Positions 16,383 through 64,000 of a DNA stretch of 64,000 bases are shown one piece after another. The stretch comes from an uncultured delta proteobacterium (GTDB lineage: Bacteria > Myxococcota_A > Polyangia > Polyangiales > Polyangiaceae). Every line of letters begins with the position of its first letter. Position 1 is the stretch's first letter. The position numbers and the translations under genes were made by a program. The notes below the pieces were generated by a model. The model searched no databases. It was not told where the DNA came from and saw only the letters and a program-made list of their open reading frames with translations. Location: assembly GCA_963850305.1 (NCBI GenBank), contig CAWKKR010000008.1:768001-832000 (forward strand), written 5' to 3'.

Positions 16383-19080
16383 TTGGCCCTCGATCGCGAG
16401 AAGATACTCCAGGCCGCCCAGAAGCATGTCGACAAGAAGAAGTTCGACAAGGCGATCCAGGAATACCAAAAGATCATCCAGCAGGATCCGACCGACGCAC
16501 GGACTCTGCTGAAGATCGGTGATCTGCAAGCGCGGATGGACGCGTACGCGGAGGCGATCGCCACCTATGACCGTGTCGGCCAGCACTACTCGGCGCAGGG
16601 CTTCGCCCTCAAGGCCATCGCCGTTTACAAGCAGATCCGCGAGCTGATCAAGAAGCACGTCCCTCAACTGGAGGACCGGTACGGGCACATCGTTCCGAAG
16701 CTCGCGACGATCTACACGGAGCTCGGGCTCACCACGGACGCCCTCGCCGCGTACGACGAGGTCGCGACCCGGCTACAGCGGGCCGGACGCGACCGCGACG
16801 CGATCGACGTGTTCCGCAAGATGGTGTCGCTCGACGCCACGAACCCGCTTCCTCATCTCCGCCTCGCGGAAGCCTGCTGCCGAGTTCAGGCGGTCGACGA
16901 AGCCATCGATTCGTTCTGGACGGCCGCCGAGCTGTTGATCCGTCTGAAACGGCGCGACGACGCTCTCAAGGTCGTCGAGCGGATCTTGCACTTTCGCGCG
17001 GAAGCCAAGTACGCGCGCGTCGCGGCTCAACTCTATCTGGAACGCGGCGGGCAACAGGACGGCCTGCAAGCGCTCGCGAAGCTGCAGCTCTGCTTCCAGG
17101 CCGATCCGAAGAACATCGAGGTCCTCGATCTCCTGTCCCGCGCCTTCGTCGCGATCGGACAAGCGCCGAAGGCCCTCGAAGTCAAAAAGGAGATCGCTCG
17201 ACTCGCGCAGGAGCAAGGGCGCGCTGACGTGTTCGATGAGGTGATGGCGTTCCTCCGGAACGCGGCCCCGGACGACGAACAGGTGCTTGCGCTGCTGCGC
17301 GGGCCGATGTCCGTGCGGCCCGGGGCAACCTCCCAGCGCCCCGAAGCCAGCTACGACGACGTCGAGTTGATCGACTCATCCGTACACCCGCAACCGAGCT
17401 CGCGGGCGGCCGTATCGATCGTTCCCGATACGTCGGATTTCGACTTCGACGACGAGCCGGTGTCGCGCGGTGCACTCGCGAGCTCCGTGCGGATAGACGA
17501 CGCGGAGCGGGACGTCCGCGCGGCGCGGCCGTTCATGGCGAGCTCCCCGGATGTCGTCGTCGTGGACGAGGACATCGAGGCCGCCGAGGAAATCGTCGGC
17601 GCGGACTCGGCCGATGCGCACGCACATGCCCGGAAAGCGGTCGTGGATGCCGAGTCGTTCCGCGGCCTCCGCCTCTACAGCAAGGCCATCGAGACCTTGC
17701 ACATCGCGCTCGAGATCGAGCCGCAGTCGCTCGAGATTCGCGAAAAGCTCCGCGACGTCTTGCTCGAAGCGGGCGATCGTGACGGCGCGATCGGCGAGAT
17801 GATTTCGCTCGCCGCGATCCACATCGACCGGGGGGCATTCGGAGACGCCGAGGCCGAGCTCTATCAGGTGCTCGAGGCCGAACCAGGACATCCGACGGCC
17901 TTCGAGATGCTCGAGCAACTCGCGGCGTATCGGTGGCGAGGTCGCGCCGTACACCGACGAGCACAATGACACGACCACCGCAGAAGTCGCCGAGCCGGAG
18001 CTCATCCGCGAGCCTTACGACCCCGAGGCGCCGCTGCCCTCGTACGACTTCGAAGAGATCCCGGCGGCCGCTGCGATTCGCGAAGACCCTGCGCACGGTC
18101 GGCGCGCGCTCGAGCAGGCGGATGATCCGTTCGAGACCATGGCCCGCGAGGCGCCGGCACAGGCGTTCCTGCGCAAGGTCGAGGACCTGGATGATTTCAT
18201 CGAAGAGCCAGAGCCCGCCGCGCCTCCGCCCCGGGCGTCACTCGCGCCGTCGGGCGTGGAAGGCATCGAAGAGGCGCTCGAGGAGGCCGAGTTCTTCACG
18301 CTGCGCGGTCTGGTGGACGACGCGCGTGCGATCCTCGTGGACGCGCTCGCGCGGGCACCGGGGCACCCGCTGCTCGTCGAGCGGCTGCGAGAGCTCGACG
18401 GCAACCCGGACACCGCCCAGAGCGGCACGCACGAACGGACCGACCCCGAGCAGGCGCCTCAGGAAGACCGCGTCTTCGACATCGCCGCGTCGCTCGACGC
18501 TCTCGACGAGCTCGAACAAGCCACCCGATCGTCGCGCCCGCCGACGTCACTGCGTCCCGTCGACGAGGTCGACGTCGACCAGGTCTTCGCGAAGTTCAAG
18601 GAAGGCGTCCGCGCGCAGATCTCCGACTCCGACAGCTCGACGCACTACGATCTGGGCGTCGCTTACAAGGAGATGGGCCTCTTGCCCGACGCCATCAACG
18701 AATTCGGCGTCGCCGCCCGGGATCCGAAGTTCGAGTGCACCTGCTACGCCATGATCGGGATGATTCAGCTGGAGCAGGGCCAGTTCGACGATGCCGCCGA
18801 GTCTTACATTCGTGGCCTCGGGGCGGCGCAGAAGACCATCGATCAGGAGATGAGCCTCTATTACGACGTCGGAAACGTGTACGAGCTGAAGGGGAACAAC
18901 CCCGAGGCCCTCTATTACTTTCAGAAGATCGCGCGCCGCGATCCCGGCTACCGCGACGTCAAGGACCGTGTCGACGCCCTGACCCCCGCCTCGGCGGCAA
19001 AGCCGACCGCCGCCAAGCGTCAGCTCCAGAGCGACGACGAGCTCGAAGCCGCCTTCGACGATCTATTCGAATCCAAGTGA
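16383..19080 (+). CDS. Large tetratricopeptide-repeat protein, frameshift near 17931
   Basis: N-terminal TPRs (KAIQEYQKIIQQDPTD), acidic linker, C-terminal TPRs (THYDLGVAYKEMGLLPDAINEF, DPGYRDV). Confidence 0.85.
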
Positions 19081-19092
19081 ATGTCCGCGTGC

Positions 19093-19655
19093 CTACTGGG
19101 AAAGGGGGCCTTGCCCTTGCCCCCGCGGCTCGCTGCGCGACCGCTCCCCCGCCGCCTTCGGCGGGCTCGTGTTCGCAAGGGGGTCTTGACCCCCGCGGCT
19201 CGCTCCGCGACCGCTCCCCCGCCGCCTTCGGCGCGCTCGTGTTCGCAAGGGGGTCTTGACCCCCGCGGCTCGCTTCGCGACCGCTCCCCCGCCGCCTTCG
19301 GCGCGCTCGTGTTCGCAAGGGGGTCTTGACCCCCGCGGCTCGCTCCGCGACCGCTCCCCCGCCGCCTTCGGCGCGCTCGTGTTCGCAAGGGGGTCTTGAC
19401 CCCCGCGGCTTGCTTCGCAACCGCTCCCCCCGCCGCCTTCGGCGCGCTCGTGTTCGCAAGGGGGTCTTGACCCCCGCGGCTCGCTTCGCGACCGCTCCCC
19501 CGCCGCCTTCGGCGGGCTCGTGTTCGCAAGGGGGTCTTGACCCCCGCGGCTTGCTTCGCAACCGCTCCCCCCGCCGCCTTCGGCGCGCTCGCTGCGCTCG
19601 CGTAGTGCCGCGGCTCTTTGATCCCTCGGGGACGACGCTGCTCGTCGATGCGGAA
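19093..19655. repeat. Structured repeat element 1: leader, 6 full plus 1 partial 70-bp units (19121-19591), trailer and ~50-bp tail
   Basis: Unit CCCCGCGGCTCGCTNCGCGACCGCTCCCCCGCCGCCTTCGGCG[C/G]GCTCGTGTTCGCAAGGGGGTCTTGAC starts at 19121, 19191, 19261, 19331, 19401, 19472, 19542. Confidence 0.97.
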
Positions 19656-19668
19656 CTACTAGGAAGCT

Positions 19669-20901
19669 CTACGCCGCATGAGGTTTGATCTCGACTTCGC
19701 AGCCGAGGTCGGTCAAGCGGCGGACGAGGCGTTTGATGGTCTTGCTCTGGTCGCGGCGGTCGAAGTGATGGGGTCCGAGGTCGCGGTAGGGAGTGCCGTC
19801 GCGGAGCATGTAGAAGGCGGCGGTGAGCATCGATGCGGCGACGGCCAAGATCGCCTTCTTTGCTCCACGGCGGGACTTGAGCCGGAGAAACTGGGCTCGA
19901 AGGTAGCTTTCCTTCGTGCGCACCGCGGCCCAGGCGGATGTGACGAGCGTCGTCTTGAGCCAGTTGGCGCTCTTGCGGACGCGCGTCGAGCGACGCTTGC
20001 CGGCGCTCTCGTCGTTGCGGGGGCAGAGGCCGGCCCAGGACACGAGGTGTCCCGCAGACGGGAAGCGCGACATGTCGACGCCGATCTCCGCCACGATCAC
20101 GTTCGCGACGATGTCACTCACTCCCGGCATCGTCGTCAGGATCTCGGCGTGCGCCCGGATCGGCTCCAGCGCTTTTCCCGCAGCTGCATCGATCTCGGCC
20201 AGGGCCCCTTCGAGCGAGCCGATGACGCCGAGATGCAGCTTCAGCATGGCTCGGTGATGAGGGGTAACCCGCCCGCGCAGCGCTTCGATCAAGTCGGCCC
20301 TCTTCTTGCGCGCGGTACCGACCGCGAGATCGGCAAGGCGCTCGGGGTCATCTTCTCCGGCGATGAGAGCGGCGAGCATCGCCCGGCCGCTGGTCCCGAG
20401 CACGCTGGACAGGACGCTCGCGACCTTGATGTTCGAGTCCTCGAGCGTTTTCTGTATGCGCAGCGTGTGCTGGGCGATTTCTCGCACGAGCTGCGCGCGC
20501 GTTCGAGTGAGATCGCGCAGCTCCTGGATTCGCGCAGGAGGCACGAAACTGCTGCGGATCAGCCCGTGCGCGAGCAGATCGGCGATCCACGTCGCGTCGT
20601 TCACGTCGGTCTTGCGCCCTGGCACGTTGCGAATGTGCTGGGCGTTCGCGAGCACGAGTTCGAAGCTCCCTTCGAGCATGTGCCAGACCGGCTTCCAGTA
20701 CACGCCGGTGGCCTCCATCGCCACGTGGGTCACGCCGTGCTCCTCGAGCCATTCCGCCAGCTCGAAGAGGCTACGTGTGGTCGTGCCGAACGTTCGGACC
20801 TCGCGCCGCGTTGGTTCGCTGACGCAGCGCACGCAGGCAACGACGCTATCCTTGTGGACGTCGAGGCCCGCGCAACGGGGATACATGACTTCCATGACCA
20901 T
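19669..20901 (-). CDS. IS110-family DEDD recombinase/transposase
   Basis: GLDVHK, MEATG, KTDVNDA (DEDD), SWAGLCPRNDESAGK (conserved Ser of the Tnp domain). Confidence 0.97.
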   Translation of the reverse strand: MVMEVMYPRCAGLDVHKDSVVACVRCVSEPTRREVRTFGTTTRSLFELAEWLEEHGVTHVAMEATGVYWKPVWHMLEGSFELVLANAQHIRNVPGRKTDVNDATWIADLLAHGLIRSSFVPPARIQELRDLTRTRAQLVREIAQHTLRIQKTLEDSNIKVASVLSSVLGTSGRAMLAALIAGEDDPERLADLAVGTARKKRADLIEALRGRVTPHHRAMLKLHLGVIGSLEGALAEIDAAAGKALEPIRAHAEILTTMPGVSDIVANVIVAEIGVDMSRFPSAGHLVSWAGLCPRNDESAGKRRSTRVRKSANWLKTTLVTSAWAAVRTKESYLRAQFLRLKSRRGAKKAILAVAASMLTAAFYMLRDGTPYRDLGPHHFDRRDQSKTIKRLVRRLTDLGCEVEIKPHAA

Positions 20902-20904
20902 CTC

Positions 20905-21149
20905 CTCCTTTCGGCGCGTCGAGAGGAGCCCTCGTCATCGAAGTCTACTAGGCGTGCTCCCGGATCTTTCGACCCGCGGTCACAATTCGGGGTGCTCGCA
21001 GGGCTCCGGGTCCATCTACTGAACGGGTTCTTGGCACCAAGTCACGGCCGACCTCGTTCCCGACGCCGCGGCAGGATACACTCGACTCCACCGTCCACGC
21101 GACGACCCGAGCTTCATGCTTCGGGGACGGCGCTCTCGCCGATGGGCAT
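20905..21149 (-). ncRNA. Putative IS110 bridge RNA (boundaries approximate)
   Basis: Non-coding left end containing CTACTGA (21016-21022, matches target junction) and TCTACTAGG (20944-20952, matches donor junction). Confidence 0.75.
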
Positions 21150-22520
21150 CTACTGACATTCGTATGGACCGCACAGGATCAGCAAACAGGACTGCTTGCA
21201 AGAGCCGCTCGTGCAGTCCGTGCCCGTCGAGCAGCCTTTGCCTTTTGCACACTTGGCGCAGAGCGCACCGCCGCAGTCGGTGTCCGTCTCGTCGCCGTCT
21301 TTCTTGCCGTCGGTGCAATGCGTCCCGCACTGATTCGCGACGCCCCCGCCAGCGCAGGTCGCCGGCGCCGTGCAGCCCGGGCAAGTCAGCGTGCCGCCGC
21401 ACTTGTCGGAGATGGAACCGCACTCGTTGGCGATGCACTGGGTGAGCGGCGTGCAGCCGCAGATCCCCTCGTTACAAGGTCCGCTCGAGCAATCCGACGT
21501 CGCGGAGCACTTCTTCCCGGGTGCGCAAGTGGCGCCGCAGTTGCCGCCGCAATCCACGTCCGTCTCCGCGGCATTCTGCACGCCGTCCGAGCACGTCGCG
21601 GACTGACACGTGGACTTGGCATTAAAACCCGTCCCCTTCTTGCAGACGTCGCTCGCGCAATCGGTCCCAGCGCCGCAATCCTTGCCGTCCGAGCATTTGC
21701 TACAGACGCCTCCGCCGCAATCCACGTCGGTCTCCGAGCCATCCTTCGTGCCGTCCGAGCAGGTGCTCGGAGGGCCGCCGCCTGCGCCCGTCGTGCCGCC
21801 TGAACCCGTCGTGCCGCCTGAACCCGTCGTGCCGCCTGAACCCGTCGTGCCGCCTGAACCCGTCGTGCCGCCTGCGCCCGTCGTGCCGCCTGCGCTTGTC
21901 GTGCCGCCCGTCGCTGTCGCACCACCTGCGCCCGTCGCGCCGCCTGCGCTTGCCGTGCCCCCCGTGGCTGTAGTACCGCCCGCGCCCGTCGTGATCTCGA
22001 CGCACGTGGACCCCGATGGTTCGTATCCCGAATAACAACCGAACCCGCAAACGCCGCCCGCGCACTCCGGGTAACCGTTTTCGACCGTCGGACACGCGAC
22101 GCAGTGTCCGAGATCGCATCCGTTCGCTGGGCTCGGCGCCACGCACTCTCCCTGGCACTGCTTCTGCGTGGGGTCTGCGCACTCTCCGGCGACGGACCCG
22201 TCGGGCCCGGCGTCCCGAGCTCCCGCGGTGCCCGCTTCCAGACTCTGCAACGCACCGCCCGACGACGCGTCGCTGACGCCGCCCGCTTCGGTTCCTCCCC
22301 CGCCCTGCGTACCTTCGCCGCCCGCGCCCCCACTCGCGCCTACACCGGATCCACCCGTCGCTCCGGAAGCACCGCCCGAAATCACGCCGCCCTCGTCATG
22401 GCGCGCGCCGACGCCGGCATCGCCAAGAGCGCTGATCTTGCCTCCCACCGTCTCCCCGGTCGCGCACCCGACATACGGGGCGACGACGAAGAGCGCAAGA
22501 AACAAGCGTGATCTACGCAT
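21150..22520 (-). CDS. Cys-rich lipoprotein with ETDVDCGG repeats and Gly/Thr linker
   Basis: Lipobox-like YVGC, three CxDGxxx(G/A)xETDxDCGG modules, GGTTGS linker repeats. Confidence 0.85.
   Translation of the reverse strand: MRRSRLFLALFVVAPYVGCATGETVGGKISALGDAGVGARHDEGGVISGGASGATGGSGVGASGGAGGEGTQGGGGTEAGGVSDASSGGALQSLEAGTAGARDAGPDGSVAGECADPTQKQCQGECVAPSPANGCDLGHCVACPTVENGYPECAGGVCGFGCYSGYEPSGSTCVEITTGAGGTTATGGTASAGGATGAGGATATGGTTSAGGTTGAGGTTGSGGTTGSGGTTGSGGTTGSGGTTGAGGGPPSTCSDGTKDGSETDVDCGGGVCSKCSDGKDCGAGTDCASDVCKKGTGFNAKSTCQSATCSDGVQNAAETDVDCGGNCGATCAPGKKCSATSDCSSGPCNEGICGCTPLTQCIANECGSISDKCGGTLTCPGCTAPATCAGGGVANQCGTHCTDGKKDGDETDTDCGGALCAKCAKGKGCSTGTDCTSGSCKQSCLLILCGPYECQ
21783..21990. 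repeat. 18-bp coding tandem repeat (GGTTGS/GGTTGA linker)
   Basis: CCCGTCGTGCCGCCTGAA repeated, degenerating outward. Confidence 0.85.
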
Positions 22521-29505: not shown

Positions 29506-29945
29506 CTAGGCAAGGGGCCTTGCCTGCCTTGACCCCCGCGGCTCGCTCCGCGACCGCTCCCCCGCCGCCTTCGGCGGGCTCGTGCTCGCAAGGGGGTCTT
29601 GACCCCCGCGGCTCGCTCCGCGACCGCTCCCCCGCCGCCTTCGGCGGGCTCGTGCTCGCAAGGGGGTCTTGACCCCCGCGGCTCGCTCCGCGACCGCTCC
29701 CCCGCCGCCTTCGGCGGGCTCGTGCTCGCAAGGGGGTCTTGACCCCCGCGGCTCGCTCCGCGACCGCTCCCCCGCCGCCTTCGGCGGGCTCGTGCTCGCA
29801 AGGGGGTCTTGACCCCCGCGGCTCGCTCCGCGACCGCTCCCCCGCCGCCTTCGGCGGGCTCGTGCTCGCAAGGGGGTCTTGACCCCCGCGGCTCGCTCCG
29901 CGACCGCTCCCCCGCCGCCTTCGGCGGGCTCGCTGCGCTCGCTAG
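29506..29945. repeat. Structured repeat element 2: leader, 5 full identical 70-bp units plus 1 partial, trailer; flanked by CTAG...CTAG
   Basis: Units start at 29534, 29604, 29674, 29744, 29814, 29884; same family as 19093-19655. Confidence 0.97.
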
Positions 29946-30971
29946 AAACCGATGTCGCCGAAGAAGGAGCCGCCGAAGGCGACGGTCGGCGTTTCGTTGC
30001 CGATGACGTAGAGAAGCGACGTCGAAAACTCGAGGCCGGTCGTCCAGGCGTCGGAGCGGGCATCGTACTTCGGCGATGGGGGCGGCGGCGGTAGGAGCAA
30101 GAAGCGCAGGCCAGCTCGCGGGCCATGAACGGTGGCTTCGACCGCCTCGTTCGTGCTTGGATCGGTCCCGAAGGTCCAGGCCTCGAGCTCATAGCCAAGC
30201 TCGAGCCCCGTCGCGAAACGCCGGATGACGAGCAACGGCGAGTCCACCCGCGCACCGATTTCCAGGACGCCCCCGGATTCGGCTCCCGTGGTCGGGTTAC
30301 GCGGACCGGCGGCGACCCCGGCGCCAAACTCGAGCCCGAGTCGCACGGGCCCGGCAAAGCCTCCGAATCGAAATCGGAGCGACGACGGTCGCACCGACAT
30401 TCTCGAGGCGATGTTTCGGCACCTCGACCCGGACCTCGGCACCAAACCACCAACCGGGTCGCTGGCGCCATTCGACCGTGTCGCCGCCCGCAACGAGCAG
30501 GGGAAGCCGCAGGCAAGAGCTCGTCGCGGGACTCGTGCCCGCGAATCTCGCGACCGGGACGTCGAGCACCGTCGGGCGCACGAGCAGCAGACCCTCGCGA
30601 TCGATGTTCGCGTTGGTGAACGACGCCGTCAGGACACCGTGCGTGCCGGGATCGAGCCGGGTGAGACGATCCGTCAACCCCGTGGCCCACCCGTTCGCTC
30701 CTTCGCCGCTCGAGCATTCCGGTTGCTCGGGACTCGTCAGACGCGGGCGCCCGAACGCGACGTCGAGGTCGCGCGCGTGGACGTCGGCACTGGTGACGGT
30801 GAACATCAGCGCGCGCGAGATAGCCTTCGCCTGGAGCTCGGCGCCGGCTGTCTTCGCCTTCAACGGACTGACCGGCTCGTACCAGCGAGCGCTCGGGATG
30901 CAGCCAGCAAACAGGAGCGATACGAGCGCCGCGAGGAACCGAGATGCATTGCTCTTGCTCGACGGACGCAT
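29942..30971 (-). CDS. Hypothetical lipoprotein with beta-rich C-terminus, frameshift near 30380
   Basis: Lipobox-like LLFAGC; ORFs 30297-30971 and 29942-30493 join; ends in ...FFGDIGF. Confidence 0.6.
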
Positions 30972-62193: not shown

Positions 62194-62549
62194 CTACTAG
62201 GAAAGGGGGGCCTTGCCGCCTTGCCCCCCGCGGCTCGCTTCGCGACCGCTCCCCCGCCGCCTTCGGCGCGCTCGTGTTCGCAAGGGGGTCTTGACCCCCG
62301 CGGCTCGCTTCGCGACCGCTCCCCCGCCGCCTTCGGCGCGCTCGTGTTCGCAAGGGGGTCTTGACCCCCGCGGCTCGCTTCGCGACCGCTCCCCCGCCGC
62401 CTTCGGCGCGCTCGTGTTCGCAAGGGGGTCTTGACCCCCGCGGCTCGCTTCGCGACCGCTCCCCCGCCGCCTTCGGCGGGCTCGCTATGCTCGCGTAGTG
62501 CCGCACCCTCTTTGATCCCTCGGGGACGACGGTGCTCGTCGGTGCGGAA
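62194..62549. repeat. Structured repeat element 3: leader, 3 full plus 1 partial 70-bp units, trailer and ~50-bp tail
   Basis: Units start at 62226, 62296, 62366, 62436; tail homologous to 19606-19655. Confidence 0.97.
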
Positions 62550-62562
62550 CTACTAGGAAGCT

Positions 62563-63795
62563 CTACGCCGCATGAGGTTTGATCTCGACTTCGCAGCCGA
62601 GGTCGGTCAAGCGGCGGACGAGGCGTTTGATGGTCTTGCTCTGGTCGCGGCGGTCGAAGTGATGGGGTCCGAGGTCGCGGTAGGGAGTGCCGTCGCGGAG
62701 CATGTAGAAGGCGGCGGTGAGCATCGATGCGGCGACGGCCAAGATCGCCTTCTTTGCTCCACGGCGGGACTTGAGCCGGAGAAACTGGGCTCGAAGGTAG
62801 CTTTCCTTCGTGCGCACCGCGGCCCAGGCGGATGTGACGAGCGTCGTCTTGAGCCAGTTGGCGCTCTTGCGGACGCGCGTCGAGCGACGCTTGCCGGCGC
62901 TCTCGTCGTTGCGGGGGCAGAGGCCGGCCCAGGACACGAGGTGTCCCGCAGACGGGAAGCGCGACATGTCGACGCCGATCTCCGCCACGATCACGTTCGC
63001 GACGATGTCACTCACTCCCGGCATCGTCGTCAGGATCTCGGCGTGCGCCCGGATCGGCTCCAGCGCTTTTCCCGCAGCTGCATCAATCTCGGCCAGGGCC
63101 CCTTCGAGCGAGCCGATGACGCCGAGATGCAGCTTCAGCATGGCTCGGTGATGAGGGGTAACCCGCCCGCGCAGCGCTTCGATCAAGTCGGCCCTCTTCT
63201 TGCGCGCGGTACCGACCGCGAGATCGGCAAGGCGCTCGGGGTCATCTTCTCCGGCGATGAGAGCGGCGAGCATCGCCCGGCCGCTGGTCCCGAGCACGCT
63301 GGACAGGACGCTCGCGACCTTGATGTTCGAGTCCTCGAGCGTTTTCTGTATGCGCAGCGTGTGCTGGGCGATTTCTCGCACGAGCTGCGCGCGCGTTCGA
63401 GTGAGATCGCGCAGCTCCTGGATTCGCGCAGGAGGCACGAAACTGCTGCGGATCAGCCCGTGCGCGAGCAGATCGGCGATCCACGTCGCGTCGTTCACGT
63501 CGGTCTTGCGCCCTGGCACGTTGCGAATGTGCTGGGCGTTCGCGAGCACGAGTTCGAAGCTCCCTTCGAGCATGTGCCAGACCGGCTTCCAGTACACGCC
63601 GGTGGCCTCCATCGCCACGTGGGTCACGCCGTGCTCCTCGAGCCATTCCGCCAGCTCGAAGAGGCTACGTGTGGTCGTGCCGAACGTTCGGACCTCGCGC
63701 CGCGTTGGTTCGCTGACGCAGCGCACGCAGGCAACGACGCTATCCTTGTGGACGTCGAGGCCCGCGCAACGGGGATACATGACTTCCATGACCAT
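62563..63795 (-). CDS. IS110-family DEDD recombinase/transposase
   Basis: Protein identical to 19669-20901. Confidence 0.97.
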   Translation of the reverse strand: MVMEVMYPRCAGLDVHKDSVVACVRCVSEPTRREVRTFGTTTRSLFELAEWLEEHGVTHVAMEATGVYWKPVWHMLEGSFELVLANAQHIRNVPGRKTDVNDATWIADLLAHGLIRSSFVPPARIQELRDLTRTRAQLVREIAQHTLRIQKTLEDSNIKVASVLSSVLGTSGRAMLAALIAGEDDPERLADLAVGTARKKRADLIEALRGRVTPHHRAMLKLHLGVIGSLEGALAEIDAAAGKALEPIRAHAEILTTMPGVSDIVANVIVAEIGVDMSRFPSAGHLVSWAGLCPRNDESAGKRRSTRVRKSANWLKTTLVTSAWAAVRTKESYLRAQFLRLKSRRGAKKAILAVAASMLTAAFYMLRDGTPYRDLGPHHFDRRDQSKTIKRLVRRLTDLGCEVEIKPHAA

Positions 63796-63798
63796 CTC

Positions 63799-64000
63799 CT
63801 CCTTTCGGCGCGTCGAGAGGAGCCCTCGTCATCGAAGTCTACTAGGCGTGCTCCCGGATCTTTCGACCCGCGGTCACAATTCGGGGTGCTCGCAGGGCTC
63901 CGGGTCCATCTACTGAACGGGTTCTTGGCACCAAGTCACGGCCGACCTCGTTCCCGACGCCGCGGCAGGATACACTCGACTCCACCGTCCACGCGACGAC
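63799..64000 (-). ncRNA. Putative IS110 bridge RNA, partial
   Basis: Same non-coding region as copy 1, with guide candidates at 63910-63916 and 63838-63846. Confidence 0.7.

Follow-up and report, generated by a model that had tools for sequence, protein, structure and literature searches.

A complete IS110 element of 1496 bases, counted from core to core, lies at 19656..21151 on the minus strand of the window, by which we mean the whole stretch of 64,000 nucleotides analysed here. It is one of eight near-identical copies (99.5-100% identity) of the sole IS110 found in this genome, and its recombinase gene (19669..20901, minus; 410 aa) matches PF01548, PF02371 and NF033542. Residues D14, E63, D99, D102 and S299 align with motifs of IS621 that we take to be catalytic, and the similarity between the two recombinases is distant (E 1.4e-12). 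The adjoining DNA is occupied by a whole non-autonomous, MITE-like element, which extends from core dinucleotide to core dinucleotide at 19093..19657 (minus), and the IS110 gene lies 12 bases beyond its trailer. Inside this element is a tandem array of a hairpin module (19116..19591, minus; period 70, 6.8 copies and 95% matches by Tandem Repeats Finder), the unit junctions of which have no donor arms. The first-pass annotation had correctly described a tandem 70-bp array and had rightly set it apart from CRISPR, the units being arranged head-to-tail with no unique spacers, but it missed that the array sits inside a mobile element with IS110 ends and directly beside an IS110 gene. It had also ended the array at 19605; the trailer actually reaches 19657, and the 52 bases added in this way are the informative part.

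Two sister arrays were detected in the window by Tandem Repeats Finder, at 29528-29932 (5.8 copies) and at 62220-62484 (3.8 copies). The former belongs to a second array at 29506..29945 (minus), which has 5.8 identical units and no left end and is probably immobile. This array stops exactly at the TAG stop codon (29943-29945) of a convergent predicted ORF (29942-30493), and the target motif also ends in TAG. The latter is the interior of a third element (62194..62551, minus; 3.8 units) with both ends intact, which is adjoined by a second IS110 copy (62550..64000, minus; gene at 62563-63795) continuing about 50 bases past the window end. An earlier statement that all arrays share a leader and a trailer is valid for the leader and trailer common to the copies, but the array at 29.5 kb has a short trailer only. 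Other features of the window are a 21-bp tandem repeat at 607-909 (14.4 copies, 93% matches), an IS481-like transposase gene at 1223-2386 on the minus strand (NF033577, 202 bits, under the 224-bit cut-off) and an 18-bp tandem repeat at 21777-21993 (12 copies) within a 456-aa ORF with no Pfam match.

Seven of the eight IS copies adjoin the left end of an element. The same element-IS junction is present on another metagenome contig (L163), whose recombinase is 94.9% identical, and is spanned by two contigs in four soil contig sets, which are from one study, are shallow and may not be independent of the source. In same-genus relatives with the element, no close recombinase was found: the best match was 37% (G006), and there was none in G002-G005, the assemblies being fragmented into 150-990 contigs. 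G001 has a 59% recombinase homologue, yet lacks the element. One IS copy (G000:C8:866350; G000 is the present genome) has three extra bases at its left junction, which suggests a register slip between two AG dinucleotides.

For analysis of the bridge-RNA guides, we used 26 of 41 homologous loci, namely those that have an AG core and whose upstream region is readable, together with this IS, and guides were assigned following the guide model as given in the accessible text of PMC11208160. For the left target guide (16 distinct guides), 75/80 bases match the flank (permutation mean 24, maximum 49); for the left donor guide (9 guides), 38/45 bases match the right end (permutation maximum 34), a count lowered by one mis-called guide; and for the right target guide, 27/42 bases match (permutation maximum 25). 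In the IS next to the array, all on the minus strand, the predicted left donor guide CCTAGTAG (20945..20952) and the predicted right target guide GACT (21040..21043) are assigned by covariation in the homologues, the predicted right donor guide AATT (20984..20987) by position and complementarity with no permutation, and the predicted left target guide TTCAGTAG is located at 21016..21023. As we read the sequence, both right guides are 5' of the corresponding left guides. At 21152..21156 (minus) are the left-target bases of the host site, which read TCAGT on the top strand. Judged from the guide matches of the homologues, the core is the second AG of AGTAG on the top (minus) strand; the first AG was rejected for the IS by homologues with differing guides, and a three-base register slip is possible in some element copies. 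Since RNA folding of the upstream region was no better than that of shuffled sequences (z 0.65), it is covariation that supports the bridge RNA.

What has been amplified in the 70-bp array is the interior of a small non-coding mobile element; the array is not a free-standing repeat. The right end of this element (19093..19109, minus) consists of a left-donor arm and the AG core; it carries the same donor arm as the IS, with one U-G wobble against the donor guide in this copy. The left end (19602..19657, minus) comprises a right-donor arm and a small hairpin, together with the left-end motif conserved in this IS110 subfamily; its stretch 19602-19612 repeats the terminal 11 bases in inverted orientation. 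This end aligns with the left end of the IS and follows the left-end pattern of the subfamily. When a profile of 24 foreign IS110 left ends was searched against the 6.26-Mb genome, 17 matches at E <= 10 were obtained (8 IS, 6 element and 3 other), and the three best were element ends, with weak E-values (0.23-1.2). In our reading, the predicted circle junction of the element (core then TT) pairs with the right donor guide via one wobble, and that of the IS itself (AT) has one mismatch to the same guide; some element copies in G002 begin with AT, like this IS.

A BLAST search of the genome with one unit gave 267 matches in 104 clusters, some of which are chance matches. By a stricter parse, 230 units at 90 loci (44 with a single unit and 46 with 2-10 units) were obtained, with periods of 50-142 bases, and a profile search gave 74 trailer ends, of which 49 have a leader that can be recognised. 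Most copies with one unit are 128-146 bases long. The element is dispersed and has no recombinase gene of its own, and most arrays in this genome are located away from any IS. Among relatives, it is present in five of six same-genus genomes, and otherwise just weak matches were found among 40 relatives. In metagenomes, 97 loci match a 17-base end motif; 25 pass the element filter, about a dozen more look real by eye, and the rest are chance matches. A sample of 400 genomes of the phylum, with two candidates scored per genome, gave seven weak DNA matches, none of which was a real element on inspection, and a plasmid collection gave no match. After the TPR gene, this element is missing from three of four relatives, and the fourth has a different subfamily, oppositely oriented; because the intergenic DNA there is unalignable, this does not amount to a proven empty site. 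A second, more decayed family, in which the same hairpin module is located between different ends, is present at roughly 20 loci in this genome (for example C11 near 64.6 kb and 250.4 kb, C7 near 219.7 kb and C1 near 792.2 kb) and at L095 in G006. The right end of five of its copies resembles that of IS110 homologues L064, L073 and L076, and the left end of two resembles that of L063/L064; no IS110 with ends of the L064/L073/L076 type was found in this genome.

A 12-of-15 match filter left 70 of the 74 trailer ends; 13 of these are followed by another copy (6) or by the IS (7), and 57 are outer ends. Because the filter contained CTACT, the next two bases alone provide an unbiased target test. 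GA is next to 22 of the 57 outer ends vs 68 of 2927 background sites (2.3%), as the left target guide predicts, and these bases are also seen at the ends in relatives (G 10/21, A 11/21) and in metagenome copies (GA at 7/23). On the right-target side, the bases disagree with the resident right target guide (GA 2/26, AA 0/26), which suggests that most copies were probably placed by other or earlier IS110s, or by half-match reactions such as those described in the available part of bioRxiv 10.64898/2026.08.31.748434. The simplest reading is that of an older family, placed by related IS110s or half-match reactions, that is now shared with the resident IS. Only 14 of 42 copies have an exact right-end junction. 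Among the 70 ends there are six full-length head-to-tail junctions of donor type, whose sequence is that of the predicted circle junction, here found in the genome. An element of 130 bases is located precisely in the DNA copy of the left target guide in two IS copies (G000:C8:718266-718396 and C5:149210-149340), the six others representing the empty site, and such an insertion should disable the bridge RNA of that IS copy. An empty paralogue was available for just 2 of 43 elements tested, and both inserts look identical and may represent one event. A five-base target-site duplication was considered and rejected, the left and right pentamers having agreed in 3 of the 37 rows where either deviated. 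No circle junction of the element was detected in the four shallow contig sets of the one soil study, which may not be independent of the source.

From the homology of the ends, the guide matches, the target bias, the one precise insertion with its empty sites and the adjacency to the IS, we consider it highly probable that the array is cargo of a non-autonomous IS110 element mobilised in trans by an IS110 recombinase and its bridge RNA. A very different history would be a REP/REPIN-like family spread by a now-lost HUH (RAYT) nuclease, which IS110 merely targets and which the left end of the IS110 has come to resemble. The trailer is indeed a GTAG...CTAC inverted repeat, but the palindrome begins 7 bases further on and the GTAG overlaps the IS core. 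REPs serve as targets for IS621 and ISPpu9, and the A box of ISPpu9 shares a palindrome with its target REP (PMC12288879, accessible text). The right target guide of the resident IS fits the element's left end, relatives that yielded no close IS110 are among those with the element, and such a repeat may well be the source of the hairpin module itself. IS110 relatives (L056, L058, L059, L075 and L081) also insert in a GNA-rich palindromic repeat; these are Dehalococcoidia homologues with an AT core, and head-to-tail ends are seen in L057 and L059. The HUH/RAYT partner proposed in the first-pass annotation was searched for and did not appear: this genome (94.8% complete) has no Y1_Tnp match, and RAYT-like genes are present in three of five relatives with the element beside none of 15 RAYT-like loci. 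Queries with the RAYT-like proteins of relatives (true queries L035, L037 and L046) gave no tblastn match in this genome. A weakly Y1_Tnp-like family of about 235-aa proteins is found at 13 loci in G006 (L035, L038, L040-L049 and one more) and also in G003 and G005; it is not flanked by the element and was not found in this genome. The left-end motif is moreover conserved in IS110s of unrelated phyla outside this repeat, and the element combines both IS ends and a guide-like left-target bias with the insertion in the bridge-RNA gene. For these reasons a REP/REPIN-like origin of the whole family appears very unlikely, and the mobile element with IS110 ends is the reading that we follow below.

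Within this IS110-type element, unit number varies from 1 to 10 per locus over the 90 loci of this genome. Structural selection had been proposed rather than slippage as the cause of the array, but the two are not alternatives, since unit number varies while the hairpins are kept. The unit types of the 19 kb array are, in order, CCCCTCT. Since a donor arm is absent from the dominant 70-bp junction, the array is not directly accounted for by the recombinase. Some of the rarer junctions of 78-134 bp look like a right end joined to the module, as would be expected if the terminal hairpin had been lost from a head-to-tail dimer. The junction variant of the 19 kb array is present in 5 of 6 IS-adjacent multi-unit loci vs 1 of 40 others (Fisher p 2.6e-5), two trailer variants were found exclusively beside IS copies, and the outer ends differ among IS-adjacent arrays sharing the junction variant. 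Either composites moved and underwent later alteration, or the adjacent units were reached by gene conversion between IS copies.

The three hairpins named in the first-pass annotation are present in the sequence of the units and fold in a prediction with DNA parameters. The assignment of GNA loops to the minus strand, which is the top strand of the element and the sense strand of the recombinase gene, was likewise borne out: motifs counted as GC-GNA-GC or CC-GNA-GG occur 15 times on the minus strand and 0 times on the plus strand in 19093-19660; at the genome-wide density of about 1.5 per kb per strand, about 0.85 would be expected on each. Top-strand loops have G first and A last in 227/230 first, 196/197 second and 99/116 third hairpins; the middle loop base of the first hairpin takes all four values, and four-base loops keep G..A in 6 of 8 cases. 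Lengthened stems in which the G..A loop caps are still kept are seen in other genomes. The central stem pair over 230 units is C-G in 158, T-A (TTGC/GCAA) in 68 and T-G in 4. TTGC/GCAA units are indeed found at 19401 and 19542, but they represent one genome-wide haplotype (the 68 of 230 units) and not two independent paired changes in the array. Covariation was evaluated in an alignment of 29 sequences from this genome, relatives and metagenomes, in which lengthened stems are mis-registered, against shuffles that ignore relatedness. Stems are paired in 95.6% of cells vs 93.7 +/- 0.3 in shuffled alignments (exceeded by 0/500 shuffles), and there are 18 double-change cells vs 5.6 (matched by 0/500), but just 4 of 35 stem pairs have a double change, a number that 50/500 shuffles reach. 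The earlier claim of selection on structure is therefore retained insofar as the stems covary beyond shuffles and loop ends are kept on one strand, and is weakened by the small number of double-change pairs and by the relatedness that the shuffles ignore. On the aligned sequences, hairpin structure is conserved, but on few independent events.

It is plausible, although we hold it as a tentative and rather doubtful suggestion, that the GNA module acts in cis as a fitness element of the single-stranded circle in IS110 copy-out transposition. The module on the excised top strand would then shield the circle from nucleases or give an SSB-free site for second-strand priming, the 11-base inverted repeat would fold back to make the core and the right-donor arm double-stranded, and tandem copies would enlarge a circle otherwise too small for double-strand conversion. 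If true, this would account for about 90 element loci vs 8 parent IS copies and for the same module between the ends of at least two IS110 specificities. At least as likely, and a serious possibility if still short of a probable one, is that the hairpins are a neutral relic of a REP-like repeat, whose stems persist through template-switch correction and gene conversion and whose strand bias is one historical accident. Template switching in palindromes can produce paired changes with no selection, and the double changes are confined to the few pairs given above. The unpaired variant TCGC/GCGC is tolerated in 31/230 units, and with one ancestral module for all copies the strand bias would be one event. 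In addition, 20 of 23 autonomous IS110 homologues have no GNA motif between the stop codon and the right end, and the hairpins are therefore dispensable for IS110 transposition. Among the exceptions, L225 has one motif on the top strand and L067 has one there vs two on the other strand. The third, L012 (L012:2730-2880 in G001), is an autonomous homologue (59%) with a right non-coding end of 152 bases and is possibly a source type for such hairpin modules; its three motifs are all on the top strand, the same strand as here, and none is on the other, which speaks against neutrality. Template switching, moreover, mends stems but leaves unexplained the G..A loop ends that are kept around a variable middle base, and the lengthened stems of other genomes are still capped by G..A. 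Selection of the hairpins as RNA, either as an Ssr9-like small RNA or as 3'-end structures of neighbouring transcripts, seems unlikely. MITEPpu9 encodes an abundant small RNA (PMC12288879, accessible text) and elements in the window begin 13 and 4 bases past stop codons, but as RNA the mini-hairpins have much lower stability than as DNA (PMC13037366, accessible text), and in 19000-21300 a promoter scan gave no sigma-70-type match and Rfam 15 no match at E <= 1.

As a non-autonomous IS110 element, the family may have arisen as follows. The basic element of about 128-146 bases would consist of a left end, a GNA mini-hairpin module and a right end. An IS110 recombinase and its bridge RNA, acting in trans, would join the two element ends at the AG core, and the element would be copied out as a circle and inserted at TCAGT-AG sites. 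The left-target arm would survive insertion, so that more elements and the IS could insert at the same junction, and repetition of this would yield head-to-tail copies and IS-plus-element composites. Most likely, the 70-bp unit derives from a head-to-tail dimer that lost the ends at its junction, and such end-less units would then expand and contract between the two outer ends via slippage or unequal recombination.

These results indicate that a parasite of IS110 can look like a dispersed REP repeat family, and that its insertion in the DNA copy of the target guide can interrupt the bridge-RNA gene of its helper. Single-stranded IS110 circles and their double-strand conversion are a question in two preprints, bioRxiv 10.64898/2026.08.31.748434 and 10.1101/2025.10.25.684509, in the portions available. 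Since the present family is a natural, high-copy donor of roughly 130 bases with strand-specific DNA mini-hairpins, it makes the circle question directly testable, and it may point to cis elements that improve donors for bridge recombinases. Even if the hairpins are neutral, a further and well-supported IS110 MITE with an internal variable tandem repeat has been obtained.

For comparison with known systems, the texts cited here were accessible in part. GTAG/CGTC REP/REPIN families with RAYT (PMC3733652) resemble the present family in being intergenic, high-copy and palindromic, in their GTAG-bounded inverted repeat and in tandem reiteration. In contrast to these (20-40 bp, with RAYT), the element is far longer and has IS110 ends, and no RAYT was found; Myxo, Sorangium and IS110 are not mentioned in the main text of that paper. 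Mini-hairpins of the type d(GCGNAGC)/d(GCGNNAGC) are found at priming sites of phages G4, St-1 and alpha3 and at RSF1010 ssiA, and such DNA mini-hairpins are reported to be nuclease-resistant and to bind SSB poorly (PMC13037366). The loop rule, with three or four bases, G first and A last, is the same here, and the shared mini-hairpin motif is the single point of likeness to single-strand initiation signals (ssi or G4-type origin); the word stem 'transpos' does not occur in the accessible text of that review.

The recombinase side resembles IS621 and CazIS110-1 (PMC11208160; bioRxiv 10.64898/2026.08.31.748434; bioRxiv 10.1101/2025.10.25.684509) in having DEDD and serine recombinase residues, an upstream bridge RNA with four guides and a two-base core. 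The core is AG here rather than CT, and the guide order is the reverse of that of IS621. In the two preprints, copy-out excision has been described as giving a single-stranded circle for IS621, and of the top strand for CazIS110-1; by analogy, the GNA mini-hairpins are on the strand reported to be excised as single-stranded DNA by such recombinases. Tandem non-coding units directly beside IS110 genes (n = 468) and repeated insertion at occupied sites have been presented in bioRxiv 10.64898/2026.08.14.744561, and the present family could be among its examples. The boundaries of those units preferentially keep left-donor matches, whereas the dominant 70-bp junction here has none, and the words MITE, non-autonomous and hairpin are not seen in the accessible main text of that preprint. 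No description of this element family was found in the literature searched, which excluded ISfinder and most subscription papers.

The closest likeness is to MITEPpu9 of Pseudomonas putida ISPpu9, which has a 43-bp A box, a 16-bp B box, an AG core and its own circles (PMC12288879). Like MITEPpu9/ssr9, the element is non-coding, with a long left box and a short right box copied from an IS110-group element and with an AG core, and occurs downstream of the recombinase gene in most IS copies and also alone and in tandem. At the level of sequence, it would be assigned to the IS110-dependent MITEs of the MITEPpu9 type, everything compared being in agreement except the right-target match. MITEPpu9 is found at 8 loci in three strains, whereas the element here is present at about 90 loci and in several species, and the known small-RNA gene inside MITEPpu9 is replaced here by a GNA mini-hairpin module in variable tandem copies, which is known from sequence alone. 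What is new in comparison with MITEPpu9 is the copy number, the cargo of strand-specific mini-hairpins, the internal amplification, the insertion into the guide of the helper, and the second end type.
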